From NCBI GenBank assembly GCA_005893305.1, contig VBOZ01000008.1, positions 9,286-73,285 on the forward strand: DNA of 64,000 nt. The letters are read 5' to 3'. Below are positions 6,826 through 19,562 of this stretch, in pieces. Origin of the DNA: Candidatus Eiseniibacteriota bacterium (GTDB taxonomy: Bacteria > Eisenbacteria > RBG-16-71-46 > SZUA-252). Both the position numbers and the translations under genes were made by a program. The notes beneath the pieces are model-generated. The model searched no databases. It was not told the origin of the DNA and saw only the letters and a list, made by a program, of their open reading frames with translations. The number at the start of each line of letters is the position of its first letter. The stretch's first letter is position 1.

Positions 6826-7275
6826 TTAGCCTTCGCGCGTCCCGCTCCGATGGAGCAGCAGGGCCACGACGAGCGATCCGATGGAGCACGCGAACGGCAC
6901 CCACACCGGGAAGATCCACTCGTGGGGAACGAGAAACACGATGTCGCGGTCGCCGAGGCCCGAGGGAAAGCCGGTGAGGAATCGCAGGAACGCGTAATAG
7001 AGAAGGTCCCAGATCCCGAAGATCCAAAGGAAGCGCGCCGCCCCTTCGCGCCACGCCGGGCGGCCGAGGAACGCGACCGCCGCGATCATGACGAGCGTTG
7101 CCGTCTCGCGCGCCTGCTCGAGCAGGAGCCCGTCGGCCGGAATCGCGTGGAACGGCGGCCGCCACCCTTCGGGGAAGTAGAGGCGCTTCAACGACACCAC
7201 ACAGGCGGTTTCCACGAAGGCCATGGCGGCCGCGTAGAGGGTGATCCCCCACCAGTCGAACCGCGGCCGCCTCAT
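6826..7275 (-). CDS. hypothetical 4-TM membrane protein
   Basis: 149 aa with four hydrophobic segments and normal composition. ATGA overlap with the upstream gene's stop (7272-7275). No recognisable family motif. Confidence 0.6.
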   Translation of the reverse strand: MRRPRFDWWGITLYAAAMAFVETACVVSLKRLYFPEGWRPPFHAIPADGLLLEQARETATLVMIAAVAFLGRPAWREGAARFLWIFGIWDLLYYAFLRFLTGFPSGLGDRDIVFLVPHEWIFPVWVPFACSIGSLVVALLLHRSGTREG

Positions 7276-8051
7276 CCTTCCGCCGGCTCCGCGATTCCGA
7301 GCTCGGCGAAGACGGCGGGGCGAAGCGGTGCCAGGAGCCGGGCCGAGAGCGCCGCCGCGACGCGCGCGCCCAGGAGCGAATCCACGACGTCGCGCCCCAG
7401 GAGCTCGGTCGTGGAGCGCGCGTGCCGCTCGAGCAATGCCCGGTCGCCCCCCGCGTTCGCGCGAAACGACGCGACGTCGCGGTGGCGCGGAGAGAGCGGC
7501 ACCGAGGCGTGGCTCAGCGCGGCCCCCCGGGTGAACCGGGACGCGATCCCCGCGACCTTGTAGGGACCCACGCGAACTTCCCCTGCGGACGACCGGGCGA
7601 AGCAGGGCTGGTCGCCGGGGCGGCCCACCGCCGCCCGCTCCTCACCGGGATCGATCCGCTCCGCCGGAAGCGCGAGCTCTCGGAGCGCCTCCGCCAGCGC
7701 CTCGGCCACCAGGTCGGCGAACGCTCGGGGCCGGAGCGCCCACGGACCCGGAAGGCTCGCGGCCACGGCGAACGTGAGCTCCCCGTCGTGCAGCACCGCA
7801 TCCCCGCCCGTCGGCCGGCGCACGACGTCCAGCTCCGCGGCTTCAACCGCCGCCACGTCCCACCCCGAGGGATACGGCTCCGCCCTTCCCAGGCTCAAGG
7901 TCGGCCGCGACCAGGCATACGTGCGGAAGACGGCGCGCGACGGTCCCGACGCGGCCCATTCGAGAAGCGCGCCGTCGATCGCCATCTGATCGGCGCCCGA
8001 GCCGGCGCGGTGGGGAAGGTAGTGGACGGAAGGTCGGCCGGACATGGCCAC
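7272..8051 (-). CDS. lipoate-protein ligase / octanoyltransferase family protein (BPL/LPL catalytic domain)
   Basis: 259 aa. MAIDGALLEWAASG..., TYAWSRPTLSLGR and KVAGIASRFTRGAALSHAS resemble the LplA/LipM catalytic core. Context: downstream of gcvH. Confidence 0.65.
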   Translation of the reverse strand: MAMSGRPSVHYLPHRAGSGADQMAIDGALLEWAASGPSRAVFRTYAWSRPTLSLGRAEPYPSGWDVAAVEAAELDVVRRPTGGDAVLHDGELTFAVAASLPGPWALRPRAFADLVAEALAEALRELALPAERIDPGEERAAVGRPGDQPCFARSSAGEVRVGPYKVAGIASRFTRGAALSHASVPLSPRHRDVASFRANAGGDRALLERHARSTTELLGRDVVDSLLGARVAAALSARLLAPLRPAVFAELGIAEPAEG

Positions 8052-8055
8052 GGCC

Positions 8056-8700
8056 TCAGAACCGAAGCAGGCCCAGCCAATCGTCGAGAAGGAACATCAC
8101 CCGTCCGATGAGCAGCGAGACCCGTGCCATGACCGTGTAGCCGTAGGAAGCTCCGAAGCTGATCATCAAAAAGTAGATCCCGACGCGAGCGCTCCCGCCG
8201 AGCGCGCCTTTGTGCTCCTTCGAGAAGAAGAAGAAGATGAGCGTGGTGAGGAGACCTCCGACGAGGAGCCAGTTGTTAATCGTCGTTCCGGCGTCTCCCG
8301 GGACCCAGAGCGGAAGCATCGTTCCGTGCACCTGCTCCACGAGATCCCCCTGAGCGAACCCGGTGATCCGAAGCGCCGGGTAGACGCCCAGGATGAAGGC
8401 GATCGGCCAGCGGGAGAGCCAGTCGCCGCGCGGGAAGAAGCGCGAGAAGAGCATGATGCCGAGCGCGAGCGGGATGAGCAGGAAGTAGTTCCGATCGTGC
8501 GTGAAGTTCGTGAAGAGAGGCTGAATCATGTTGGGATAGACGGACGAGATCATCGTGAGCACGACGTAATAGCCGGCCGAGATCCCGACGAAGAGATGCT
8601 CGCAGAACTTGTATACGGGGTTGTCCTTGTAGAGAAAGCTGAAAATCCCGAGCGTGAGGAAGGCCCCGATCCAGACTCCGATGTCCGAGCTCAGATGCAT
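8056..8700 (-). CDS. hypothetical polytopic membrane protein (quartet member 4)
   Basis: 214 aa with about 6 hydrophobic helices. No family motif recognised. Tightly packed with neighbours. Confidence 0.65.
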   Translation of the reverse strand: MHLSSDIGVWIGAFLTLGIFSFLYKDNPVYKFCEHLFVGISAGYYVVLTMISSVYPNMIQPLFTNFTHDRNYFLLIPLALGIMLFSRFFPRGDWLSRWPIAFILGVYPALRITGFAQGDLVEQVHGTMLPLWVPGDAGTTINNWLLVGGLLTTLIFFFFSKEHKGALGGSARVGIYFLMISFGASYGYTVMARVSLLIGRVMFLLDDWLGLLRF

Positions 8701-8707
8701 GGCTCTC

Positions 8708-9541
8708 CTATCCCTTCGCGGGCTTCCGCTGCCCGAGAAACGCGATGTTGCCCAGGATGATCATGAACGCGATGAACACGTGGGCCAGGGACTGGGCGTC
8801 CATCCCCCTCGTGGCGAGCGCGGGCTTCCCCACGAGAGCTTCGTACTCCGCGGCGCCGGCCATGCCCCCCAGCAGCCCCTGGAGCTGTCCGGCCTGGAGG
8901 TAGGGATAATACTCGGGCGCGCTCACGGCGGTGACCCCGGCGATCATCGGCACGTGAAAGCGGGACACCACCTGCTGCACCCACTCCTTGGTCCCCGGAT
9001 ATCCCGCGCTGATGCTCACGATCATGTCGATCTGCTGAAAGTTCTCGATCCCCCTCATGACCGGAATCTTCGAGACCGGAACGCCTCGGCTGTCCACCGG
9101 GAACGTCTTCGGAATGCTGGTGCCCATCGAGGACATCACCAGCTCGTTCCCGACCTTGTAGCCCAGGTTCACGTAGTCGACGCCGAGTTTCTTTCCAAGC
9201 TCCGCGCCCATGGTCCGCAGCACGTCGTCGCCGATGGGAACGCCCGCGGGGTAGAGCTCGACGCCGATGATCTTGATGTTCCGCCGCATCAGCTGGCGGG
9301 CCGCGGCGAGGTGCATGGGATAGTTCTCGGCCCTCGTCCCGGGATCGTAGTCCGCGGCGACCAGCACCGTGGAGCCTTCCGGGAGGCGCTCGATGGCATC
9401 GTAGAAGCCCTTTGCGCGATGGCTGGGCACGACGGGCGCGAGGTGAAAGCCGAAGAGGAGCGGGGCGATGACCAGGAGCCCGACGGCCAGAAAGATCCAT
9501 CGGCGGTCCAGCGCCCGCAGCCCGGCCAGGAAGTCCCTCAC
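8708..9541 (-). CDS. hypothetical bitopic membrane protein with central globular domain (quartet member 3)
   Basis: 277 aa. N-terminal TM (WIFLAVGLLVIAPLLFGF), a globular region of about 220 aa, and a C-terminal TM (LAHVFIAFMIILGNIAFLG). 4-nt overlap with the upstream gene. Confidence 0.65.
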   Translation of the reverse strand: MRDFLAGLRALDRRWIFLAVGLLVIAPLLFGFHLAPVVPSHRAKGFYDAIERLPEGSTVLVAADYDPGTRAENYPMHLAAARQLMRRNIKIIGVELYPAGVPIGDDVLRTMGAELGKKLGVDYVNLGYKVGNELVMSSMGTSIPKTFPVDSRGVPVSKIPVMRGIENFQQIDMIVSISAGYPGTKEWVQQVVSRFHVPMIAGVTAVSAPEYYPYLQAGQLQGLLGGMAGAAEYEALVGKPALATRGMDAQSLAHVFIAFMIILGNIAFLGQRKPAKG

Positions 9542-10179
9542 GCGCCTCCTTCCCCTCCGCCGCCGTAGGCCTTCTCGAGGCCGAGGATGACCCGGATGCC
9601 GGTGGCCATGACCCCGAGCGCCGCGCCGATCAGAATGCCCCGCTTCGCGGCGTTCTGCGGAATCTCCATCAACCAGTCCGCCGCGTCCGGTATGTAATGG
9701 CTAATCGCGTTGCCGAGCGGAACGCGGCCGATCATGAGGATGAACGCCGCGATGGCGAGCAGGAGCGCCTCAGGCGAGCGGATCCGGAACGCGCGGAACG
9801 CGGCGGACGCGATGAAGAACGCCAGGAGCGCGAACATGGTGGACGTCATCGGCGAGTAGAACGTGAGGTAAATCCACTGGAAGCGTGAATGCACGTCCGA
9901 GTAGTGGTTCCCTTCCGAGAACCCGATCGCCATCGTGGTCAGAAGGCCGAGGATGAGCACGATCTTGTAGATCCAGTCACCCTCTCTCCGCTGGGCCTGG
10001 CGGAGGTTGATACGCAAGAGATTCGCGACGCCCAGGACGTACGTGCAGCCGACCACCACGATCCCCCAGTTCTGCACGTCGCCGTAGAGATCGTGGATCC
10101 AGGGATGCGGCACGAAGAAACCGATCAGGCAGAAGATCCCCGACACCAGAGTGATCAGGATCGGGACTTCGCGCTTCAT
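9538..10179 (-). CDS. hypothetical polytopic membrane protein (quartet member 2)
   Basis: 213 aa with 5-6 hydrophobic helices and a Gly-rich tail. No family motif recognised. Confidence 0.65.
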   Translation of the reverse strand: MKREVPILITLVSGIFCLIGFFVPHPWIHDLYGDVQNWGIVVVGCTYVLGVANLLRINLRQAQRREGDWIYKIVLILGLLTTMAIGFSEGNHYSDVHSRFQWIYLTFYSPMTSTMFALLAFFIASAAFRAFRIRSPEALLLAIAAFILMIGRVPLGNAISHYIPDAADWLMEIPQNAAKRGILIGAALGVMATGIRVILGLEKAYGGGGEGGA

Positions 10180-10189
10180 CGCGGACGCC

Positions 10190-11335
10190 TCACTGGGTGG
10201 CGAAGAAGCCGGTGAGCCACGACTGGCCGAAGGTGAGGAGGAGCGAGCCGGCGACGATGACCGCGATGAGGAAAATCTTGACCGTGTCGGAGGCCTTGAG
10301 GCTCCCCAGAAGGCGCGCGTCGTTCGAGAGGAGAGCGCTGGCCGCGAAATATTCCTCGCCGATCAGCGTGTAGTCGCAGGCGACGACGAAGAACGGCATC
10401 TGATGCACGTTGGCGGTGCCGGCGATCTGGATGGCCCCGACCGAGTGGCCGGTCTCCGCGAGGAGGAGCGATTCCGCGAAGAAGGCGCCGAGAAGGAAAT
10501 TCGCGGCGGGACGCTCCCGGAGCATGATGCCGTTGACCGCCGCGACGTAGGCGAACTGCTCCGAGGTGATGTAGCGGACCTGGTCGCTCCGGTACGCGTC
10601 GGACCGGCCCACGTCCGCGTAGGCCGACTTGACTACCTCCTCGGCCACCGTGTAGACGCCCGGCGAGTTCGCGGGAACGAGCAGATTGGTCTCGTACTTG
10701 GCGGCCATCCGGGCGACCTTGGTCAGGAGGATCATGCTCGCGATGGTCTGGATGTCGTCGATCTCCTGAACCCCGGGCACGTAGAGGATGCCGCGCCCCA
10801 TCTCCGTCGCTCGTCCGATCGCTTCCTCGATCGCGGCGAGCCCGGGGATCTTCCGGAAAGACCAGCGAACCCCGCTCTCGGCCTGGCGAATGTAGAAGAA
10901 GAGGAGAAAAAAGAAGATCCCTGCGACCACCAGGACGTTCAGCTTGGTCCGGTCGAACCACGCGGCGAGGGCCCGCGTCGGCGCGGAGACTTCGGAGTCG
11001 AGCTGAGGGTCGGTCGGCTGGGCGACGAGCTGATATTCGTAGAAGACGCCGGTCTGGACGGCGCCGTCGCGGAAGGAATGGGCCGTCCCCTCGATGGTGA
11101 TCACCGGCGCGAAGGTCCCCCCGCGCTCGCGGCGGACGAGGACCCACTCCTTGGCCACGGGCGCTGGAGCGGTCCATTCGAGGGTGATGCTTCCCCCGCC
11201 GTCGTTCGGCGTGTCCCTTGCTCTGAGCGGGAAGGCGGCTGCGGGGGAGGCCAACAGGAGAGAACAGAGGAAAAACACGACTGAAACGGCCGCCGGGAGG
11301 TGTACGCCCGCTCTGCCACGCTCGACGCCCAGCAC
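10190..11335 (-). CDS. hypothetical membrane protein with FN3-like ectodomain (quartet member 1)
   Basis: 381 aa. Signal peptide (VVFFLCSLLLASPAAA), then an FN3-like pattern (SITLEWTAPAP...WVLVRRE...FRDGAVQTGVFYEYQLVA). This is followed by a TM, a globular domain of about 190 aa and a C-terminal TM. GTG at 11333-11335 is preceded by GGGAGGGG. Confidence 0.65.
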   Translation of the reverse strand: MLGVERGRAGVHLPAAVSVVFFLCSLLLASPAAAFPLRARDTPNDGGGSITLEWTAPAPVAKEWVLVRRERGGTFAPVITIEGTAHSFRDGAVQTGVFYEYQLVAQPTDPQLDSEVSAPTRALAAWFDRTKLNVLVVAGIFFFLLFFYIRQAESGVRWSFRKIPGLAAIEEAIGRATEMGRGILYVPGVQEIDDIQTIASMILLTKVARMAAKYETNLLVPANSPGVYTVAEEVVKSAYADVGRSDAYRSDQVRYITSEQFAYVAAVNGIMLRERPAANFLLGAFFAESLLLAETGHSVGAIQIAGTANVHQMPFFVVACDYTLIGEEYFAASALLSNDARLLGSLKASDTVKIFLIAVIVAGSLLLTFGQSWLTGFFATQ

Positions 11336-11380
11336 GCGAATTCGACCCCTCCCTACGTCTTACGTCCGGCGTTCCCAATC

Positions 11381-11410
11381 ACGTTAGTGGCGCTCCGGCG
11401 CGGGTGTCAA
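11381..11410 (-). promoter_or_regulatory. promoter candidate TTGACA-18-TAACGT inside the module
   Basis: Minus strand: CTTGACACCC...CCACTAACGTG, with -35 at 11410-11405 and -10 at 11386-11381. It sits in the only sizeable gap (99 nt) of the gcvT-to-gpmI gene string, leaving a 45-nt leader with a Shine-Dalgarno sequence. Confidence 0.4.
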
Positions 11411-11434
11411 GCGGCATCTGCCCGTTCCGAGGCT

Positions 11435-12565
11435 CTAGGACTCGATCATCTCCACGTTCGCGCGCGGCAAGAGCGTGCGTTTGCCGTCTCCAAAATCCAC
11501 CTCGAGGACCCGGACTTTAGCTTCGGTCTCGAGAGGGACGAGCTCGGGCGGCAGGGACACGACCTTCCCGAGGCGCCCGAAGTACGGCTCTCGAATGGCG
11601 CGGATCAGGCTCCCGACCGTGAGCCCCTCGGGCTCGGCACCGTCGGCGCGAGCCTCCGCCGGGATCGCCTCCGTCAGGCGGGGCGCCACGATCTCGGGCC
11701 TGAGCACCCCCGCGCGGATCTGCGTCGCGCCGCTCACGGAGACCTTTCGCCCCTCGCAGCTTTTCAGGAGCTCGAACGTCCGGCCGGCCATCGGAATCTC
11801 TCCGAATCCCTCCGTGACGACGAGCGTCAGCCCCTTTTCCTCGGAGCCGGTGATCGCCACGCCCAGGTCGTAGCCGAGGAACTCGCGGAGGTCCTGGTCG
11901 TCGAACCCGCCGATGACCACGGCCTTCGCGCCGAGCTGGATCGCCCGGTTGAGGACCCTCGTCGTGACGTGCGATCCCCCCACGAGGACCTTCCCCCGTA
12001 CATCGCTCCCGAGATTCGCCTCGGTCAGCGCCTCCCCCGGTCCCGCCACGCAGACGTGCAGCTGCCCGCTGATCTCTCCCCCGATGCCGAAGATCCCCTG
12101 GATGAAGGTGCCGCGCGTCTCGACGGTGACCCCCTGGCTCTCGTGCACCTCGACGACCGTCCCGTCGACGTAGGCGTCGACCTCGACCGGAATCGGCGGC
12201 TCGCGGAGCAGGGCCTGGCCCGTGACCGTGGAGACGCTCTCCACCGTGCCGTCGGTGGGCGACAGGACCTTCGACCGGAAGAGCCCGAAGAAGGAGCGGC
12301 TTTCCGCGATCGCTTCCCCTTTCTTCACCGGGGATCCGATCGGCTTCACGAGGCAGTCCGGGACATCCTCGGGGAGAACGCCCATGATGTTCGCCGCGTT
12401 CACGGTCTGGACGTTTCCGGGCAGCTCGGTCCGTGCGACGATCGTCTCGGCCTCGACCTTCTGTCCGACCGAGACCAGAACGGTTCCCGCGAGCGGGAGC
12501 TTCCTCTCCCGACGCAGCGTCGTGAAGGCGGAGACCTTGAGTCCGGGCGTGTACGAGTGGGCCAT
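11435..12565 (-). CDS. hypothetical soluble protein with N-terminal barrel-sandwich-hybrid-like fold and Rossmann-like middle domain
   Basis: 376 aa. N-terminus LPLAGTVLVSVGQKVEAETIVA...VKKGEAIAE...LSPTDGTVESV recalls the NqrA/RnfC/HlyD-type hybrid motif. The middle region reads GKVLVGGSHVTTRVLNRAIQLGAKAVVIGG. No confident family call. Confidence 0.6.
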   Translation of the reverse strand: MAHSYTPGLKVSAFTTLRRERKLPLAGTVLVSVGQKVEAETIVARTELPGNVQTVNAANIMGVLPEDVPDCLVKPIGSPVKKGEAIAESRSFFGLFRSKVLSPTDGTVESVSTVTGQALLREPPIPVEVDAYVDGTVVEVHESQGVTVETRGTFIQGIFGIGGEISGQLHVCVAGPGEALTEANLGSDVRGKVLVGGSHVTTRVLNRAIQLGAKAVVIGGFDDQDLREFLGYDLGVAITGSEEKGLTLVVTEGFGEIPMAGRTFELLKSCEGRKVSVSGATQIRAGVLRPEIVAPRLTEAIPAEARADGAEPEGLTVGSLIRAIREPYFGRLGKVVSLPPELVPLETEAKVRVLEVDFGDGKRTLLPRANVEMIES

Positions 12566-12568
12566 GCG

Positions 12569-14392
12569 TCAGACCTTCACGGCGGCAACGGGGTAGGCAT
12601 CGAGCGCCTCATTCCATTCCGCCAGCTTCGAAATGCGGCGATCGCGGTCCGCGGGGAGCGTGAACGGCTGGCGACCCCGACAATCGAAGATCACGCCCAC
12701 CACGCCGCCCTTCAAGACCACCTCGCGCTCACGGCCCTTCCCGGCGCCGACGTCGAGCCCCCGCTCGGGATTCAGGACGGCTTTCACCGACTCGCCCTCC
12801 GGCACGGGAACGAGCTTCAGATACCCGTACGGGATCGACAGGGTCTCCCGGCGTCCGTCCGGGAACTCCAGGGAGGCGCGCAGGGCCGTGACCCCCTCCT
12901 TCCCCGGGCCGACCGGCGCCACCGTCGAGCCGAGACGGATGAGGCAGTCTTTCTCGAACACCTGCTTCGCGGCCCTGGGATGCACGGTCGACAGAACGCC
13001 GAGCTGCGGCATCATGAAGATGGAATCGACCGCCAGCTCGGTCACGTGCTCCGGGAGGAAGGCGTCGAGAAGCATGAGCGCCGCCTGGGCCCGGCGCGGC
13101 GCGTGCGACAGGACGCCGCCGCTTCCCACCAGAAGGTCCAGGTGGTCGAGCCGCACCAGCGTCTCGCCGCTCCCCGTCTGCTCGAAGGTGTCCGAGATCG
13201 TCCGCTCCTGCTGCACCCCCTTGAGACCGACCGCCAGCATCTTGTGCTGCTCGAAGGCGAGGCGCAGCGCCTCCCGGGAGATCGCCTGCTCGATGATCAG
13301 CTCTTCCAGGGTCTGGGGAATCGTCGTCGGCCGGATCATCTTGTTCTTGATCCGATTTCTGAGATCGTGCTCGCTGATCTCGAACGGCACCCAGCGCAGG
13401 ATGTTCGGGAGGCCGGCCTCCGCCAGGACGTTCGAAACGCTGTACGACATCCCGAGGTTGGCGCTGACCGTCCGGTTGAACACGCTCTGGAACACCGAGA
13501 AGACGTCGGTCGTCGCGCCGCCGATGTCCACGCCGATCACGCTGATCTTCTCGTCCCGGGCGATCGTCTCGATGATGAGGCCCACCGCGCCGGGCGTGGG
13601 CATGATCGGAACGGGCGACCACGTCATCAGCTTCCGGTAGCCCGGAGCGTGCGCCATCACGTGCTCCATGAACAGGTCATGGATCATGTCGCGCGCCGGG
13701 GTCAGGTTCTCCCGCTCGAGGACGGGCCGGAGGTTGTCGGTGATCTTGAGCGCGGTCTTGTGCGCCAGCCGCTCTTCCACGATCTTCCGCGCGTCCTTGT
13801 TCCCGGCGTAGATCACCGGCAGCTCGTACCCGGCGCCGAGGCGCGCTTTCGGGTCCGCCGCAGCGAGCAGCTCCGCCATCTCCGCGACGTGGGAGGTCGT
13901 CCCTCCGTCCACCCCGCCGGATAGGAGGATCATGTCGGGGCGAAGTTGGCGGATGCGCTTGATCTTCTGGTACGGCAGGCGGCCGTCGTTGCTCGCGATC
14001 ACGTCCATCACGATCGCCCCGGCGCCGAGCGCGGCGCGCTGGGCGCTCTCCCCGGTCATGCTCTTCACCACGCCCGAGACCATCATCTGGAGGCCACCGC
14101 CCGCGCTGGAGGTCGAGATGTAGAGATCGACTCCCTGCGTTCCGGACTGGGGGGTCATGATCCTCTCGCCGTCCAGGATCTTCCGGCCGGCGAGCTCCTC
14201 CACCTCCATGATCGCGTTGAGGACGCCCCGCGTCACATCCTCGAACGGGGCTTCGACCGTGGTCGGCGCCTCGCCGCGAACGATCAGGCGATATTCGTCC
14301 CCGCGCCGCTCGATCAGGATCGCCTTCGTCGTCGTGCTCCCGCAGTCGGTCGCGAGTATCGAATTGATCGCTTCAGGCTTTGGGATCGTCAC
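12569..14392 (-). CDS. GlmL/MutL-type ASKHA (actin-fold) ATPase-like protein
   Basis: 607 aa. ATDCGSTTTKAILIE lies at the N-terminus and there is a second phosphate-binding-like site, VIGVDIGGATTDVFSV. This is the pattern I know from glutamate mutase accessory protein GlmL (MutL family). Confidence 0.65.
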   Translation of the reverse strand: MTIPKPEAINSILATDCGSTTTKAILIERRGDEYRLIVRGEAPTTVEAPFEDVTRGVLNAIMEVEELAGRKILDGERIMTPQSGTQGVDLYISTSSAGGGLQMMVSGVVKSMTGESAQRAALGAGAIVMDVIASNDGRLPYQKIKRIRQLRPDMILLSGGVDGGTTSHVAEMAELLAAADPKARLGAGYELPVIYAGNKDARKIVEERLAHKTALKITDNLRPVLERENLTPARDMIHDLFMEHVMAHAPGYRKLMTWSPVPIMPTPGAVGLIIETIARDEKISVIGVDIGGATTDVFSVFQSVFNRTVSANLGMSYSVSNVLAEAGLPNILRWVPFEISEHDLRNRIKNKMIRPTTIPQTLEELIIEQAISREALRLAFEQHKMLAVGLKGVQQERTISDTFEQTGSGETLVRLDHLDLLVGSGGVLSHAPRRAQAALMLLDAFLPEHVTELAVDSIFMMPQLGVLSTVHPRAAKQVFEKDCLIRLGSTVAPVGPGKEGVTALRASLEFPDGRRETLSIPYGYLKLVPVPEGESVKAVLNPERGLDVGAGKGREREVVLKGGVVGVIFDCRGRQPFTLPADRDRRISKLAEWNEALDAYPVAAVKV

Positions 14393-14841
14393 GGAGAATC
14401 CTTCCCTTTCCGGGCCTGATCGCGGGCCGCGCGCTCCTCGGCCTTCCGCTCGCGCTCGGCCTGCCTGGCCTTCTCGTCCCGGTCCTCGATCTTCACCAAG
14501 AGTACCTCGATGTTCTCGCGCCGCTCCATGAGCGCCGCGAATCGCTCGTATTCCGGGACCGTGAAGAGCGCCCGGACCATCGGCTCGAAAAAGTAGAGCG
14601 CCTGGCTCCCCAGGAAGGAGAGCGGCTTCACGCTTTCGAGAAACAGGATCGCCGGAACCGTCATCCGGCGCGACACCGCGAACTCGGCCAGCCGCTCCAA
14701 GAGACGCTCGTCTTCCGGAGAGCGCCCGCCGTCCCGAGCCGGGTCGGAGCCCGCGGGCGGATCAGGCCGCCTAGGCTTCCGCGGCACCTCGCCCGATACG
14801 GGCTTCGACGAACGCCACCACTTGATCGCGATTTCCTCCAA
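14389..14841 (-). CDS. hypothetical protein with charged coiled-coil tail
   Basis: 150 aa. Conserved-looking core (MTVPAILFLESVKPLSFLGSQALYFFEPMV) and a KE/R-rich C-terminus. The listed TTG start overlaps the upstream gene by 71 nt; an internal GTG at 14785-14787 is an alternative start. Confidence 0.5.
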   Translation of the reverse strand: MEEIAIKWWRSSKPVSGEVPRKPRRPDPPAGSDPARDGGRSPEDERLLERLAEFAVSRRMTVPAILFLESVKPLSFLGSQALYFFEPMVRALFTVPEYERFAALMERRENIEVLLVKIEDRDEKARQAERERKAEERAARDQARKGKDSP

Positions 14842-15220
14842 AGAGAAGCCGGACGCCTCGGTAGGCTTCCAGCCAGTTTCGCCGGTCGAATGGGCTCAGG
14901 AACACGCCGGTCCGATCCACGGTCATCCGCCGCATCTCCGTCCACGGACGCACGCGCGAGACCCCGAGCGAGCGCACCTCCAACGACTCCTTCGTCAGTC
15001 GGTAGCTCGTCGGGAGCAGAAACGAAGAGAGCGACGCCAGGACGAAGCCCGGAGCGGCCACGCCCAGGAACGAATCGTCGGTTCCCTTCTTCACGAGCAT
15101 GCCCAGCACGACCGCGGCCACGATCAGCACCGCGGCGGCGAGGGGACGCTCACGCGCCGGCCAGGCGGTCCAGCTCAGCTCCCCTGCCTTGCGCGGCCGC
15201 TCCTCATGCGGCTCCGCCAT
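14771..15220 (-). CDS. hypothetical 2-TM protein with bacterial PH-like C-terminal domain
   Basis: 149 aa. Two hydrophobic helices, then YRLTKESLEVRS...VRPWTEMRRMTVDRTGVFLSP, which resembles bPH/YdbT-type domains. Overlaps the gcvPB stop by 17 nt. Confidence 0.5.
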   Translation of the reverse strand: MAEPHEERPRKAGELSWTAWPARERPLAAAVLIVAAVVLGMLVKKGTDDSFLGVAAPGFVLASLSSFLLPTSYRLTKESLEVRSLGVSRVRPWTEMRRMTVDRTGVFLSPFDRRNWLEAYRGVRLLFGGNRDQVVAFVEARIGRGAAEA

Positions 15221-16673
15221 GAGCCTCCGTGTCCTGCCAGCTGAGCTCCAGTCTCCGCGCGGCGCGGGCCTCGTCGAGGCGGCGTACCGGCGTCTTCGTG
15301 GGAGCGGCCTTGACCCGAGCCGGGTCCTCGATCGTCTCCCGGTCGATCGTGAGCATTGCCTCGGCGAACGAATCGAGGCTCGCCTTCGTCTCCGTCTCCG
15401 TCGGCTCGATCATGAGCGCCTCGTCCACGATGAGCGGGAAGTAGGTCGTCGGGGCGTGCATGCCGAAATCGAGCAGCCGCTTCGCCACGTCGAGCGCCTT
15501 CACGCCCCGCGCCTTCTGCCGGCTCGCCGAGAGGACGAACTCGTGCATGCAGTACCCGGGGTGCGAGGGCGCGTAGGCCTCCACGAGGCGCGCCTTGAGA
15601 TAGTTCGCGTTCAGGATCGCCTCGCGGCTCACCTCGGAAATCCCCGTCCCGCCCAGCGTCCGCATGTAGCAGAGCGCGCGGAGGAGGATGCCGAAATTGC
15701 CGTAATGCGAGTGGACCCGGCCGATCGATCGGGGCCGCTCGTAGCTCCAGCTGTAGCGCTCACCATTCTTCTCGAGCACGGGGAGCGGGAGATAAGGCTC
15801 CAGCTCCTGCCGGGTGCATAGAACCCCGCCGCCGGGGCCGCCCGTTCCGTGGGGCGTCGAGAACGTCTTGTGGAGGTTGATGTGGGCGAAATCGAACCCC
15901 ATCGCGCCGGGGTTCGCGAGGCCCACCATCGCATTGAGGTTCGCGCCGTCCAGGTAGAGGAGCGCTCCCGCTTCGTGAACCAGGCGCGCGATCTCCCCGA
16001 CGTGCGTCTCGAAAATCCCCAAGGTGTTCGGGTTGGTGAGCATCATCGCGGCCGTCTTCTTGGTGATCGCGTTCCGCAGCGCGTCCATCTCCACGCGCCC
16101 GTCCGGCCCCGAAGGGACGGTCACGACCCGATAGCCGACCTGGTGCACCGTCGAGGGGTTCGTGCCATGGGCCGAATCGGGGACGATGACCTCTTCGCGG
16201 GCGTCTCCCCGATCGCGGTGGTAGGCGCGCGTCATGAGGATCGCCGTGAGCTCGCATTGCGCCCCGGCCACCGGCTGCGTCGTGATCGCGGGCATCCCCA
16301 TCACCGTCTTGAGCCAATCTTGAAGCTCCCAGATGACCGCCATCGCTCCCTGCGAGGTCTCCTCCGGCTGCAACGGATGCAGCATTGCAAATCCCGCAAT
16401 ACGGGCCACTTCATCGTTTAGCTTCGGGTTGTACTTCATGGTGCAGGAGCCGAGCGGATAGATCGCTTTGTCGATGTGGTGGTTGAGCGTCGAGAGGTTC
16501 ACGAAGTGGCGGACCGCGACCGGCTCGGACACCTCGGCAAGGGCGGGGGCCGCGCGCCGCAGGCGATCCTTGGGGATCACGCGCTCGGCTCCCTGCGCGG
16601 GCACGTCGAGCGGCATGAGCCGCGGGCCGCGGTGCCCAGGAACCGAGAGCTCCCTCAAGGTCAGCTCCGACAC
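15204..16673 (-). CDS. gcvPB: glycine dehydrogenase (decarboxylating) subunit 2
   Basis: Track ORF 15204..18074 trimmed to the GTG at 16671-16673 (VSELTLRELS...), in frame and overlapping the gcvPA stop by 13 nt. PLP site: NLHKTFSTPHGTGGPGGG. Confidence 0.9.
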   Translation of the reverse strand: MSELTLRELSVPGHRGPRLMPLDVPAQGAERVIPKDRLRRAAPALAEVSEPVAVRHFVNLSTLNHHIDKAIYPLGSCTMKYNPKLNDEVARIAGFAMLHPLQPEETSQGAMAVIWELQDWLKTVMGMPAITTQPVAGAQCELTAILMTRAYHRDRGDAREEVIVPDSAHGTNPSTVHQVGYRVVTVPSGPDGRVEMDALRNAITKKTAAMMLTNPNTLGIFETHVGEIARLVHEAGALLYLDGANLNAMVGLANPGAMGFDFAHINLHKTFSTPHGTGGPGGGVLCTRQELEPYLPLPVLEKNGERYSWSYERPRSIGRVHSHYGNFGILLRALCYMRTLGGTGISEVSREAILNANYLKARLVEAYAPSHPGYCMHEFVLSASRQKARGVKALDVAKRLLDFGMHAPTTYFPLIVDEALMIEPTETETKASLDSFAEAMLTIDRETIEDPARVKAAPTKTPVRRLDEARAARRLELSWQDTEAHGGAA

Positions 16674-18049
16674 GCCGCCTCCGCCGGGGCCTTCGCCGCC
16701 GCGGTCCTCGCCCACTGGGCCGCGGTCTCGACGTAACGGTCGAGCTCTTCCCGGCTCCGCTTTTCCGTGACCGCCACGAGAAGATCCTTGCCGCGAGCGC
16801 GATCGAAGCGTGCCAGCGGAATCCCGGCCAGAATCTTTCGCTCGAGCGCGGCGCGCGCAAACGCTTCCGCGCTCCCTGGGAGCCGGACGACGAACTCGCG
16901 GAAGTAGGGGGCGTCCCCGTTCGCCAGGGTGATTCCGGGAATTTCGGCCAGGCGTCCCGCCAGGTAGTGCGCCCGCTCCAAGCACTGCGTCGCCACGTCG
17001 CGCATTCCCTGCGCCCCGAGGAGCGCCAAATGGACCGTGTTCGCGATCGACATCAGCCCTTGGTTCGTGCAGATGTTGGATGTCGCCCGCTCCCGGCGTA
17101 TGTGCTGCTCGCGGGTCTGGAGCGTGAGCACGTAGCCGCGCTTCCCGTCCAGGTCGACCGTCGCGCCGGCCAATCGGCCGGGGAGCCGCCTCACGTCGGT
17201 CTTCCGGATCGCGAAGAAGCCGACCAGGGGACCGCCGTAGCTCATCGGGACGCCGATCGGCTGGCCTTCCCCGACGACGATGTCGGCGCCGTCCTCGCCC
17301 GGCGGCGTGAGGATCGCGAGCGCGACCGGATCCGCGACCGCGATCGAGTATCCGCCCGCCGCGTGCGCGGCCTCCGTGAGGACCTTTCCGTCCTCGACGA
17401 TTCCCTCGAAGTTGGGCTGCGGCCAGATGACTGCCGCGATCTGCGGTCCCTCGGCTCGCGCGATCGACGCCGCGGACGTGCGCCCTCCCGCGAGCGGAAG
17501 GTCCTCGACCGTGAATCCGCCGGCCGACGCGTATGTTCTCAGTACTTCGCGGTAATGCGGGTGAAGCCCCGCCGAGACAAGGACGCGCGTCCGGCCGGTC
17601 GCGCCGGCGGCCAGGTGCGCGGCCTCGGCGGCGGCGGTCGCGCCGTCGTACATCGAGGCGTTGGCCACCTCCATGCCCGTCAGCTCGCGGATCAGCGACT
17701 GGTACTCGAACATGACCTGGAGCGTTCCCTGCGAGACCTCGGGCTGATACGGCGTGTAGGCGGTGGCGAACTCCGAGCGCGAGATGATCGAGCGGAGGGC
17801 GGCGGGGATGAAATGGTCGTAGATCCCGCCTCCGAGAAAGCAGGCGTAGCGGCTCGCGTCGGCGTTCCGCTCCCCCCACTGCTCGAACTTCCGGGCGATC
17901 TCGTACTCGGCGAGCGGCGCCGGTAGGGGGAGCGGTCCCGTGACGCGGAACTCCTCGGGGATCGACGCCCAGAGCGATTCGAGGTTGGGCGCGCCGATCC
18001 GCTCCAGCATCTGGCGGCGCTCGGCGTCGCTCCGTCCGACGAAACTCAC
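16661..18049 (-). CDS. gcvPA: glycine dehydrogenase (decarboxylating) subunit 1
   Basis: 462 aa. MSFVGRSDAERRQMLERIGAP...YTPYQPEVSQGTLQ is typical of P-protein subunit 1. Confidence 0.9.
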   Translation of the reverse strand: MSFVGRSDAERRQMLERIGAPNLESLWASIPEEFRVTGPLPLPAPLAEYEIARKFEQWGERNADASRYACFLGGGIYDHFIPAALRSIISRSEFATAYTPYQPEVSQGTLQVMFEYQSLIRELTGMEVANASMYDGATAAAEAAHLAAGATGRTRVLVSAGLHPHYREVLRTYASAGGFTVEDLPLAGGRTSAASIARAEGPQIAAVIWPQPNFEGIVEDGKVLTEAAHAAGGYSIAVADPVALAILTPPGEDGADIVVGEGQPIGVPMSYGGPLVGFFAIRKTDVRRLPGRLAGATVDLDGKRGYVLTLQTREQHIRRERATSNICTNQGLMSIANTVHLALLGAQGMRDVATQCLERAHYLAGRLAEIPGITLANGDAPYFREFVVRLPGSAEAFARAALERKILAGIPLARFDRARGKDLLVAVTEKRSREELDRYVETAAQWARTAAAKAPAEAACRS

Positions 18050-18432
18050 GCGTGCGCCCCCAGGTGCTTCTCATAGGCGCCCGCGTTCAGGAGCGTGTCG
18101 ATCTCCTTCGGGTTCGCCACGCGGATCCGGACCATCCAGCCCTTGTCGTAGGGCGACTGGTTCACGAGAGCCGGATTCTCCTTCAGCTCGGTGTTCACCG
18201 CCGTCACCTCGCCGCCCACCGGCGCGAAGAGATCGCTCACGGTCTTCACGGCGTCGATCGTACCGAATGCCTTCATCTGGGCTACCTTGGTCCCCGGCGC
18301 CGGCAGCTCGACGAAGATCACGTCCCCCAGCTCTCCCTGGGCGTAGTCGGTCACGCCGACGATCACCTCGTCGCCCTCCACGCGAATCCACTCATGCTCC
18401 TTCGTATAGTGAAGGCTCTTTGGTACGTTCAT
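18046..18432 (-). CDS. gcvH: glycine cleavage system H protein
   Basis: Track ORF trimmed to the ATG at 18430-18432 (ATGA overlap with the gcvT stop), giving 128 aa. Lipoyl-lysine context: GTIDAVKTVSDLFAP. Confidence 0.9.
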   Translation of the reverse strand: MNVPKSLHYTKEHEWIRVEGDEVIVGVTDYAQGELGDVIFVELPAPGTKVAQMKAFGTIDAVKTVSDLFAPVGGEVTAVNTELKENPALVNQSPYDKGWMVRIRVANPKEIDTLLNAGAYEKHLGAHA

Positions 18433-19562
18433 TTTGGGCTCCTGGGTTTCGGCGATTTGACGGATCCGTTGCGGTAGATCGGGCGGGACGTCACGGCCGC
18501 GGGGGCGCTCGTGCCGCGCGTGATGACCTCGACGCGGGCCCCGGGCTTCGCCGCGTCGCCGGCGAGATAGGCCATCGCGACCGGCCGCCCCACGCTGATT
18601 CCCATCGACCCGCTCGTCACGCGGCCGACCGGCTTCTCGTCGAAGCGAACCTCGCAGCCCGCCCGGGCGATCCGGTCTTCTTCCAAGACCAGGCCCAGGA
18701 GGCGCCGATTCACGCCCGCCTCCTTCACGCGGCGGAGCGCGTCCAACCCGATGAAATCCTGCTTCTCCCACCGGACCGTCCAGCCAAGCCCCGCTTCGAG
18801 CGGATTCGTGGTCTCGTCGATATCGTTTCCGTAGAGGCAGTAGCCCATCTCGAGACGGAGCGTGTCGCGGGCGCCGAGGCCGATCGGGCGGATCCCCTCG
18901 CTCTTCCCCGCCTCGAAGACGCGGTCCCAGAGATCGAGGGCGCGCGGAGCCCGGACATAGATCTCGAAGCCGTCCTCGCCGGTGTAGCCGGTCCGCGAGA
19001 CGAGCGTCCAGTCGTCCCCCGCGCCCTCCTCGAACGCCTCGTAGAAGCCGAGGGCCCGAGCGCGGTCTCCGTAGAGGCGCGCCACGACCGCCTCCGCCCG
19101 GGGACCCTGCACCGCGAGCTGCGCGGTCTGCGCGTTCTCGTCGACGACGGTAACGTCCGCCGGCGCGTGCCGGCGGATCCAGGCGATGTCCTTCTCGAAA
19201 TTCGACGCGTTCACGACCAGGAGGCGGTCCGGACCCGAGGCGTAGACCAGGAGATCGTCGATGATCCCGCCGGTCTCCAGGCACATGGGGGTGTAGACGA
19301 CCTTTCCACCCGGAAGATTCCCCGCCTCGTTCGTGACGAGGCGGTTGGCGTAGGCGGCGGCGCCGGGACCTTGAAGCCGGATCTCGCCCATATGCGAGAC
19401 GTCGAAGACCCCGACGCCAGAGCGCACGGTCCGGTGCTCGGTCAGGATCCCCTCGTACTGGATCGGCATCTCGTGGCCGGCGAAGGGCACCATCTTCGCC
19501 CCAAGGGCTACGTGACGGGGATGGAACGGGGTCCGCTTCGGTGCGGTTGCGGTTTCGAGCAT
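18429..19562 (-). CDS. gcvT: glycine cleavage system aminomethyltransferase T
   Basis: 377 aa. [26 protein letters not shown] and [11 protein letters not shown] are typical GcvT motifs. Confidence 0.9.

Follow-up and report, generated by a model that had tools for sequence, protein, structure and literature searches.

An uncharacterized eight-gene module with a GlmL-family ATPase and four membrane proteins between the glycine cleavage genes and a LipM-like gene of an Eisenbacteria genome

Results

Gene content of the module

A 64,000-nucleotide (nt) stretch of the genome of a Candidatus Eiseniibacteriota bacterium (GenBank assembly GCA_005893305.1, contig VBOZ01000008.1, positions 9,286 to 73,285; hereafter, the window) contains, on the minus strand at 8056-15220, a module of eight densely spaced open reading frames (ORFs), denoted g1 to g8, that encode proteins of 149, 150, 607, 376, 381, 213, 277 and 214 amino acids (aa), respectively (Table 1). 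All eight ORFs of the tightly packed set delineated in the initial annotation are present. The module consists of two units, namely, g1-g4 and the membrane protein quartet g5-g8, the latter found either alone or in two to three tandem paralogous copies. The junctions between the genes, mostly, 4-nt overlaps or gaps of 10 nt or less, suggest translational coupling, which we count in favor of the functional interpretation proposed below, and the array as a whole, from the glycine-cleavage (gcv) genes upstream through the module to the downstream genes, reads as one long operon.

The gap between g4 and g5 contains a perfect TTGACA at 11410-11405 (-), followed by an 18-nt spacer and a weak TAACGT, as well as a strong GGGAGGGG Shine-Dalgarno sequence ahead of the GTG start of g5. 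The TTGACA/TAACGT pair, which corresponds to the promoter-like motif initially noted in this gap, was not called in a consensus promoter scan.

The GlmL-family ATPase

The g3 protein is a member of the Pfam family MutL/GlmL (PF13941; 423.5 bits against a cut-off of 27, E-value 1e-126, residues 12-483), in agreement with its original description as a GlmL/MutL-type actin-fold protein. With the curated NCBIfam models concerned (GlmL, ornithine-pathway Or-4 and TIGR01319), the scores of g3 are under every cut-off (NF040745, 224.3 versus 475 bits; NF040744, 211.6 versus 600 bits; TIGR01319, 162 versus 204 bits), and the protein carries an additional conserved C-terminal domain of about 125 aa. Both ASKHA motifs, tested as the patterns DxGxT..K (phosphate-1) and DxGG.T.D (phosphate-2), are readily identifiable in the forms DCGSTTTK at residues 16-23 and DIGGATTD at residues 289-296, each retained by at least 95% of 27 orthologs, and g3 is predicted to be a nucleotide-binding-competent ASKHA (actin-fold) ATPase. 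Its conservation is extremely strong, with 59-89% identity between phyla, a level similar to that of MreB or DnaK; in the mapped loci of Nitrospirota and Planctomycetota, g3 is 55-70% identical to that of the window. Sequence and profile searches of the PDB with g3 yielded no match; the only match to a polymerizing-actin family, MreB-like_C, was under the cut-off (14.9 against 27.8 bits).

Public databases label g3 'glutamate mutase L' or 'TIGR01319 family', and the other module proteins 'hypothetical'. In every locus with g3, this gene adjoins g2 and g4, a gene for a small protein specific to the lineage, or g8; none of the annotated neighbors belongs to B12-binding or mutase families (glmS/glmE or oraS/oraE type). 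In this gene context, 'glutamate mutase L' is a function that g3 cannot have.

The g4 protein and g3-g4 fusions

The AlphaFold2 (AF2) model of g4 (predicted local distance difference test (pLDDT) score of 83.8) includes a beta-rich N-terminus that contains a barrel-sandwich hybrid, followed by a small alpha/beta domain and, at the C-terminus, a KOW-like barrel. The model, along with weak matches to the RnfC_N and biotin-lipoyl families, bears out the barrel-sandwich N-terminus and alpha/beta middle domain that had been discerned from the sequence; the KOW-like barrel is additional. No Pfam family matches g4 above the cut-off, the hits of the barrel-sandwich to RnfC_N (19.8 bits against a cut-off of 25.6) and Biotin_lipoyl being below threshold, and sequence and profile searches of the PDB gave weak, sub-threshold matches, mostly, to KOW domains, at the C-terminus. 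Foldseek searches with the model likewise gave domain-level matches only, the best of these to Thermotoga maritima NusG, Spt5 KOW, PA-domain ectodomains and biotin carboxyl carrier protein, and no full-length (enzyme-like) analog. A role of g4 as a lipoyl or biotinyl carrier was rejected: the hairpin position is occupied by R or K, and the spacing is not canonical.

The g4 protein, a predicted cytoplasmic partner protein, contains the invariant loops LGYDLGVAITG, TEGFG and GATQIRAGV.RPE. The most conserved motifs fall in lower-confidence loops of the AF2 model, a pattern typical of interaction surfaces, which these loops might form. In an exhaustive search with a g4 profile hidden Markov model (HMM), 996, 2256 and 3365 representatives of 50%-identity clusters were retrieved at E-values of at most 1e-30, 1e-10 and 1e-3, respectively. 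Two of the retrieved proteins (P0417, 995 aa, and P0482, 1003 aa) are g3-g4 fusions in which g4 forms the C-terminus behind a full-length g3 that is 59% and 53% identical, respectively, to g3 of the window.

The membrane protein quartet

Transmembrane (TM) predictions are in accord with the original recognition of g5-g8 as four membrane proteins. The g5 protein belongs to a Pfam domain of unknown function (DUF), DUF6754 (PF20539, E-value 1e-107), and also contains an FN3 domain. Its AF2 model (pLDDT 86.9) consists of a signal peptide, FN3 (residues 37-122), a TM helix (129-153), an alpha/beta domain with six parallel strands (160-338) and another TM helix (340-368), an arrangement in which FN3 would be periplasmic and the alpha/beta domain cytoplasmic. 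The residues that are invariant in the family (G188, G283, G306-T307, C320-D321 and G326-E327-E328) lie at the C-terminal ends of the strands; in doubly wound alpha/beta domains, ligands bind at this edge. No cofactor-binding motif was detected in g5, which has neither the DxHxxG motif of B12 domains nor an invariant His, and a single invariant Cys. In searches of the PDB (sequence, profile and Foldseek) and in a Foldseek search of BFVD, the matches of g5 fall on FN3, swamping the lists; the only match in the viral list described as other than FN3 or tail protein is a weak LabA/NYN-like one (rank 49, E = 2.6e-3). In Chloroflexia, g5 lacks the FN3 domain.

Both g6 and g8 are polytopic. The g6 protein, with about 6 predicted TM helices, always follows g5, and g8, with about 5-6, always closes the quartet and contains the conserved motifs FSFLYKDNP.YKF.EH and FGYTVMAR.SLLIGR. 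In g7, TM anchors at 17-35 and 252-270 surround a domain of about 215 aa that is predicted, from hydropathy and charge distribution, to be periplasmic, with an N-in topology suggested by the flanking positive charges and by the Chloroflexia homolog, in which the N-terminus is disordered and a zinc ribbon is predicted on the cytoplasmic side. The latter protein (locus L040, 11351-13492 (+)) is 713 aa long, with the zinc ribbon at the N-terminus and an acidic, proline-rich disordered stretch of about 400 aa ahead of the first TM helix. Searches of Pfam and the PDB with g7 produced no match. For g6, g7 and g8, as well as for the isolated soluble domains, nothing was detected in Pfam even at an E-value of at most 10. 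Internal repeats were found in neither g6 nor g8, and hhalign comparisons of module proteins, including g6 against g8 and the domain of g5 against that of g7, gave no sign of paralogy, all probabilities being below 3%.

The two small proteins, g1 and g2

The g1 protein is confined to some lineages; its orthologs show 67-78% identity in Eisenbacteria and 27-43% identity in four other loci (L062, L064, L081 and L093). Two TM helices are predicted, at 26-44 and 51-69, as had been noted initially, followed by a conserved C-terminal domain; the PH-like domain ascribed to this protein was not confirmed, with no match to g1 in Pfam, NCBIfam or the PDB. The g2 protein combines a conserved hydrophobic to amphipathic core, P..LFLES..P..FLGSQ, with a charged tail, and its orthologs, of about 123 aa, are encoded immediately upstream of g3 in Nitrospirota and Planctomycetota. 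Since the orthologs are of this length and conservation starts near residue 43, translation of g2 more likely begins at the GTG at 14787 (132 aa) than at the TTG at 14841. None of g1, g2, g6, g7 and g8 belongs to a Pfam or NCBIfam family.

Conservation and modular architecture

A scan of a genome collection with g5 identified 41 loci, and a metagenome scan yielded 546 relatives, of which 80 were kept; the loci were mapped by tblastn, with a coverage of 10 kb on each side. The order g2-g8 is common to Eisenbacteria, Nitrospirota and Planctomycetota, with identities to the window proteins of 67-89% in Eisenbacteria and, in the two other phyla, of 39-55% for g4 and 26-51% for the membrane proteins. 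The order g5-g6-g7-g8 is invariant in more than 100 loci, and the quartet is also found in Zixibacteria, WOR-3, Latescibacteria, Fermentibacteria, Ignavibacteria and Chloroflexia. Accordingly, the genes are not confined to one genome, which would have spoken for a chance assemblage, but rather co-occur in a conserved order in at least 7 phylum-level groups.

The two units combine in different ways. In Zixibacteria, WOR-3, Fermentibacteria and Ignavibacteria, the quartet is often alone within the 10 kb covered on each side. In many lineages, g4 lies directly ahead of the first quartet, including the Latescibacteria loci, where g3 is not found nearby; in Zixibacteria-like loci, g3 and g4 are transcribed divergently from the quartets. 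The Chloroflexia locus has the order g5-g6-g7-g8-g3, and the adjacency of g3 and the quartet at such low identity (20-33%; 27% for g3) implies an old association. Many loci contain two or three tandem quartets and never more than one g3-g4 pair; one such pair together with 2-3 quartets is present in L062, L064, L080, L081, L086, L101 and L105. The tandem quartets, which share 31-58% identity in most loci, arose by old duplications, and their four subunits diverged together. The most divergent between the paralogs are g7 (31-55% identity in most loci) and g6, as might be expected of specificity determinants. Taken together, these results indicate that g3 and g4 work together, that the four quartet subunits form a cognate unit, and that this unit and the g3-g4 unit are functionally linked.

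Two of the multi-quartet loci contain insertions within the first unit. Between g3 and g4, these loci encode a small membrane protein (L062, 4772-5179; L064, 8037-8507 (+)) that matches PF24838 ('8xMP', octameric membrane protein family) below the threshold, and unrelated genes (SIR2-like, PEMT, cation efflux) lie between g2 and g3.

Genomic context

Flanking genes were annotated with Pfam, and all flanking ORFs were clustered without prior assumptions; the counts below refer to 85 loci with at least 2.5 kb of flank. Genes related to lipoyl enzymes or lipoyl attachment are located within 3.5 kb of the module in 17 of the 85 loci, which belong to at least 5 separate clades of the g5 neighbor-joining tree. 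Three arrangements recur. In Eisenbacteria, including the window, and in L048, L049, L081, L093 and L094, gcvT-H-PA-PB precede the module, which is followed by a LipM-like gene; the gcv-to-module junction is also found in L043, and quartets followed by a LipM-like gene in L012 and L050. In deep-branching Nitrospiraceae (L023, L032, L033 and L035), genes for E1, E2 and LipA precede the module, with 2 nt between the LipA stop and the g2 start in L033. In a planctomycete (L038), the module is followed by genes for Lpd and LipA. Given that lipoyl-enzyme and lipoyl-attachment genes recur in these three arrangements, the flanking gcv and lipoate-ligase-family genes are more than mere borders of the module. 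If lipoyl-related genes are taken to account for about 0.5% of a genome, three independent lipoyl contexts in about a dozen would be expected by chance at a probability on the order of 1e-3, which is a rough estimate rather than a computed statistic.

Other contexts are lineage-specific. In 6 of the 85 loci, all Zixibacteria-like, tolQ-tolR-tolA-tolB-pal-cpoB extend an operon in which a gene X is located between g3 and g4. Protein X, encoded in this position in L010 (385-9401 (-)), L085, L101 and L105, ahead of the tolQ, tolR, tolA, tolB, pal and cpoB genes, is a secreted protein, about 260 aa long and anchored by a C-terminal TM segment; in the tol-pal operons of proteobacteria, the place of g3-X-g4 is held by ybgC. 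A Memo-like gene (PF01875, about 415 aa) is present in 18 of the 85 loci, those of Nitrospira (L016, L027, L042 and 15 others), always after the module, about 100-200 nt downstream of g8. Six Nitrospira loci among the 85 encode PlsY upstream of the module, at a distance of at most 3.5 kb; in L039, about 190 nt separate plsY from g2, and in L042, inserted mobile elements come between the two genes.

The LipM-like gene

The product of the gene at 7272-8051 matches the Pfam family LplA-B_cat (69.6 bits) and consists of a single catalytic domain of 259 aa, without an LplB or C-terminal accessory domain. RRPTGG, Cys150 (in PCF) and Lys165 are invariant in nine module-associated homologs; Cys150 and Lys165 may be equivalent to the LipM catalytic residues of the acyl-thioester mechanism, a Cys followed by a conserved Lys. 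The NCBIfam ligase models score far under their cut-offs, and the best relative in the PDB is the single-domain archaeal LplA 2ars (E = 5e-19, full-length alignment); archaeal LplA requires a separate LplB subunit. The LipM octanoyltransferases have been described as archaeal-type LplA that lost LplB, and LipM of Bacillus subtilis is specific for GcvH (Tanabe et al., PMC10332631). Because the single-domain, archaeal-type LplA architecture matches this description, the 7272-8051 product is more probably a LipM-type octanoyltransferase serving GcvH than a salvage ligase. Of the flanks originally drawn, the gcv operon upstream stands, and the downstream 'lipoate ligase' is thus more likely a LipM-type enzyme. 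Homologs of this gene follow the last g8 in L012, L044, L048, L049, L050 and L094.

The LipM assignment weakens one candidate function, a lipoate-salvage importer coupled to an ATP-dependent ligase, given that the adjacent enzyme appears to be a transferase rather than a ligase; it preserves the link to octanoyl/lipoyl assembly.

Other features of the region

The coordinates are collected in Table 1. The 956-aa ORF at 15204-18074 is gcvPB over-extended across gcvPA, and a 505-aa ORF without a Pfam family lies upstream of gcvT, at 20146-21663 (-). Downstream of the LplA/LipB-family gene, there is a gene for a small membrane protein, followed by gpmI. This 149-aa membrane protein (6826-7275 (-)) is encoded with a 4-nt overlap with the stop of the LipM-like gene, is 64-76% identical among Eisenbacteria loci, has no Pfam family, and may be an additional member of the operon. 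Very long ORFs, up to 874 aa, lie antisense to g3 and g4 (for example, 11300-13924 (+)); these are not genes but a by-product of the GC content of about 67%.

Table 1. Features of the module and its flanks in the window
Feature	Position	Strand	Product length or basis	Junction with the next gene downstream
Glycine-cleavage genes upstream of the module	15204-19562	(-)	gcvT, gcvH, gcvPA, gcvPB	
gcvT	18429-19562	(-)	Pfam GCV_T	
gcvH	18046-18432	(-)	GcvH sequence read directly	
gcvPA	16661-18049	(-)	Pfam GDC-P	
gcvPB	15204 to about 16680	(-)	Pfam GDC-P	17-nt overlap (gcvPB stop over g1 start)
g1	14771-15220	(-)	149 aa	overlap of 17 or 71 nt, set by the g2 start (GTG 14787 or TTG 14841)
g2	14389-14841	(-)	150 aa from TTG 14841; alternative GTG 14787, 132 aa	4-nt overlap
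g3	12569-14392	(-)	607 aa	3-nt gap
g4	11435-12565	(-)	376 aa	99-nt gap
Promoter-like motif in the g4/g5 gap	11381-11410	(-)	TTGACA, 18-nt spacer, TAACGT; read from sequence	
g5	10190-11335	(-)	381 aa	10-nt gap
g6	9538-10179	(-)	213 aa	4-nt overlap
g7	8708-9541	(-)	277 aa	7-nt gap
g8	8056-8700	(-)	214 aa	4-nt gap
LplA/LipB-family gene	7272-8051	(-)	259 aa; begins 4 nt past g8	

Comparison with known systems

Searches of Pfam, NCBIfam, PADLOC and the PDB, and Foldseek searches with the two models, identified g3 as a GlmL family member, g5 as DUF6754 plus FN3, and generic domains in g4, consistent with the first impression that no characterized complex is recognizable in the module. A literature search with DUF6754, PF13941, TIGR01319, GlmL and Nitrospira glutamate mutase found no description of the module. 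The resemblance of g3 to GlmL/MutL of glutamate mutase and Or-4 of ornithine aminomutase consists in the HMM match over the ASKHA core (12-483), with the nucleotide motifs retained. However, g3 differs from these proteins by its sub-cut-off scores, by its size (607 versus about 460 aa, owing to the additional C-terminal domain), by its neighbors, usually the membrane quartet and never B12-mutase genes, and by a much higher conservation between phyla.

In architecture only, the module resembles energy-coupling factor (ECF) and ABC importers: one cytoplasmic ATPase unit is combined with several paralogous, co-diverging membrane modules, the polytopic subunits are small, with about 6 TM helices, a tethered extracytoplasmic domain could be a binding protein, and a cofactor-attachment enzyme is in some cases encoded next to the module. 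The LipT S-component was reportedly predicted from its position next to lplA by the same gene-neighbor logic. In contrast to these importers, the module has no homology to an ABC ATPase, EcfT or an S-component, its ATPase has an actin fold, and each quartet consists of four different subunits, one with domains on both faces of the membrane; no module protein matched the ABC_tran, EcfT, S-component or permease families in Pfam or NCBIfam (for g6-g8, at E-values of at most 10). With the PilM-PilN-PilO, GspL-GspM, FtsA and MreB-MreC-MreD platforms, the module shares a cytoplasmic ASKHA protein encoded together with bitopic or polytopic inner-membrane proteins that bear periplasmic domains. However, the membrane partners are not homologous, g3 belongs to the enzyme-like GlmL branch, and the module is not associated with a secretion ATPase, pilins or cell-wall synthases. 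The order of domains in g4, a barrel-sandwich followed by a small alpha/beta domain, and its location just ahead of membrane subunits of 200-380 aa are reminiscent of RnfC and NqrA, but the RnfC_N match is sub-cut-off, there are no Fe-S or flavin motifs, and the top 50 Foldseek matches of g4 include no NqrA or RnfC structures.

An Rnf/Nqr-like complex, considered on the strength of the subunit sizes and the RnfC_N hint, was rejected in the absence of an Rnf-Nqr/NQR2_RnfD membrane family and of a structural match. An anti-phage defense system was rejected as well, the PADLOC models matching none of the eight proteins. Because membership among the GlmL equivalogs, the ABC/ECF importers, the Rnf/Nqr complexes and the defense systems fails on the defining features tested, the system cannot be assigned to a known kind; it is new in the sense of being undescribed and unassignable rather than in the sense of a demonstrated mechanism.

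Discussion

Building on the observed gene content, gene order, conservation, copy number, g3-g4 fusion, domain architecture, predicted topology and genomic context, we tentatively propose, with a probability of about 0.3, that the locus encodes an undescribed, ATP-serviced inner-membrane translocation complex tied to the supply of lipoyl or acyl cofactors or to the substrates of lipoyl enzymes. We infer a physical assembly in which one unit, at the cytoplasmic face, would comprise the g3 ATPase working with g4 (a single polypeptide in some organisms), together with the small membrane-associated g2 and, in some lineages, g1. The other unit would be the quartet, with a membrane-embedded core formed by g6 and g8; the doubly tethered periplasmic alpha/beta domain of g7 could serve as the ligand- or partner-recognition element, and g5, spanning both faces, could offer the conserved crevice of its cytoplasmic domain as a docking or ligand site for the cytoplasmic unit. 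One such unit would serve one to three paralogous, substrate-specific quartets, that is, a shared energizing module would be combined with interchangeable membrane modules. Coupling to ATP, as well as the direction and nature of the cargo, are conjectural in this scheme. Because the module is repeatedly embedded in lipoyl-enzyme operons, the cargo might be a precursor in the supply or handling of octanoyl/lipoyl (acyl) cofactors or, alternatively, a compound such as glycine or a 2-oxo acid on which lipoyl-dependent dehydrogenases act. We favor translocation because it best explains the one-to-many copy number and the concerted divergence of the quartets, with the periplasmic subunit the most variable, and fits both the two-sided topology and the location in operons of enzymes that need a cofactor or substrate supply. 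The originally suggested reading of the module as a machine composed of an ASKHA protein and a membrane assembly fits these data as well, without being proven by them. A bolder version, which we regard as rather doubtful, is that an actin-fold GlmL-type ATPase with a barrel-sandwich/KOW adaptor powers a new class of multi-subunit inner-membrane translocators in which the four-protein modules are interchangeable and substrate-specific, at least one of them supplying the octanoyl/lipoyl pathway, for example, as the missing bacterial route of lipoate/octanoate uptake and activation.

Several observations weigh against translocation. No module protein is homologous to a known transporter, channel or energizing subunit; g6 and g8 lack internal repeats and share no homology; and no fold class could be matched to g7 or to the g5 cytoplasmic domain, for which FN3 matches swamped the Foldseek lists. 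To our knowledge, there is no precedent for a GlmL family protein energizing transport, the only role proposed for GlmL being that of a chaperone or reactivase of B12 mutases. The g3-g4 fusions may be artifacts of gene calling or read-through, the two genes being 3 nt apart in the window. Since most quartet loci have neither g3 nor g4 within 10 kb, the ATPase may be dispensable or only regulatory. Finally, the tol-pal context in Zixibacteria-like loci and the PlsY and Memo contexts in Nitrospira do not point to lipoate.

The role proposed for GlmL suggests an alternative that we deem possible although unlikely, namely, that g3 is an ATP-driven, Hsp70-like maintenance factor, with g4 as the adaptor, that loads, exchanges or repairs a ligand or cofactor of g5 or assembles the quartet, which would then be a membrane enzyme or sensor rather than a transporter. 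GlmL, EutA and the diol-dehydratase reactivases are thought to act in this manner, and g3 is a true member of the Pfam MutL/GlmL family. In characterized operons, GlmL adjoins a small alpha/beta cofactor-binding subunit, a precedent to which the six-stranded alpha/beta domain of g5, with its conserved crevice, might correspond; furthermore, one g3-g4 pair per several quartets would suit catalytic servicing, as would the quartets that are often found alone. However, g5 has no cofactor-binding motif, the annotated neighbors include no B12-dependent mutase gene near any locus, g3 is under all curated GlmL cut-offs and has the additional C-terminal domain, and its very high conservation would be unusual for an accessory chaperone. 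The actin fold of g3 and its MreB/DnaK-level conservation would also suit a polymerizing protein that g4, g2 and g1 tether to the quartets, with the periplasmic FN3 and g7 domains touching the cell wall or outer membrane, in a system for envelope organization or division. The operon shared by g3-X-g4 and the tol-pal genes in Zixibacteria-like loci agrees with such an anchor, as do the suitability of FN3 and of a doubly anchored periplasmic domain for structural contacts and the long, disordered cytoplasmic arm with a zinc ribbon of the Chloroflexia g7. We nevertheless find this explanation doubtful: it leaves the lipoyl-operon context unexplained, the tol-pal link is found in one lineage only, the quartet shows no likeness to MreC/D, RodZ, PilN/O or FtsN, and the GlmL branch is listed among the non-polymerizing enzymes of the superfamily (PMC5597319).

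A further scheme, which overlaps in cargo with the translocation model, would have the quartet extract or import octanoate, lipoate or a fatty acid and g3 act as a carboxylate kinase, the product feeding LipM/LipA or PlsY, by a logic analogous to that of the Fak system. The ASKHA superfamily does include short-chain carboxylate kinases, and the neighborhoods are suggestive: a LipM-like gene comes immediately after the last g8 in at least 7 lineages or loci, LipA or E2 is encoded directly upstream of g2 in Nitrospiraceae, Lpd-LipA downstream of the module in a planctomycete, and PlsY, a user of acyl phosphate, upstream in six Nitrospira loci. Yet g3 belongs to the GlmL/hydantoinase-like branch rather than the acetate/butyrate-kinase branch, no acyl-binding domain was recognized, and the barrel-sandwich of g4 has no conserved modifiable lysine (R or K at the hairpin). 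Moreover, a four-subunit complex would be elaborate for a membrane-permeant acid, and most quartet loci have no lipoate or lipid neighbor, so that we consider such an acyl-activating assembly rather improbable. As for the possibility that unrelated hypothetical genes came together by chance, or that the ORFs are spurious products of a high GC content, for which the GC content of about 67% and the many long spurious ORFs on the opposite strand might speak, it is effectively excluded by the recurrence of the gene order in many loci: all eight proteins have protein-level orthologs in the same order, the families are large, and the AF2 folds of g4 and g5 are confident.

Through its link to lipoyl-enzyme operons, the module offers a testable entry point into several open questions, including the uptake of lipoate/octanoate by bacteria and the supply of LipM-type enzymes where the donor is unclear. 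The module includes no homolog of a protein of experimentally tested function; six of the eight proteins are outside described families and one is a DUF protein, so that current annotation is empty or misleading. At the very least, an annotation as 'glutamate mutase L' should be viewed as misleading in these phyla. The module is widespread, with about 1000 g4 clusters at 50% identity (E-value of at most 1e-30) and thousands of 90%-identity clusters for g4 and g5, and its hosts are environmentally dominant but poorly studied phyla, including Nitrospira, that is, key nitrite oxidizers and comammox bacteria, and much of the Fibrobacteres-Chlorobi-Bacteroidetes (FCB) candidate radiation. The link to lipoyl operons and the g3-g4 fusion provide direct experimental handles. 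If the module is indeed a membrane machine that an actin-fold ATPase drives or services, it would represent a new principle in bacterial membrane biology and, should the bolder version hold, a principle of primary transport unrelated to the ABC, P-type, F/V-type and Sec-type ATPases.

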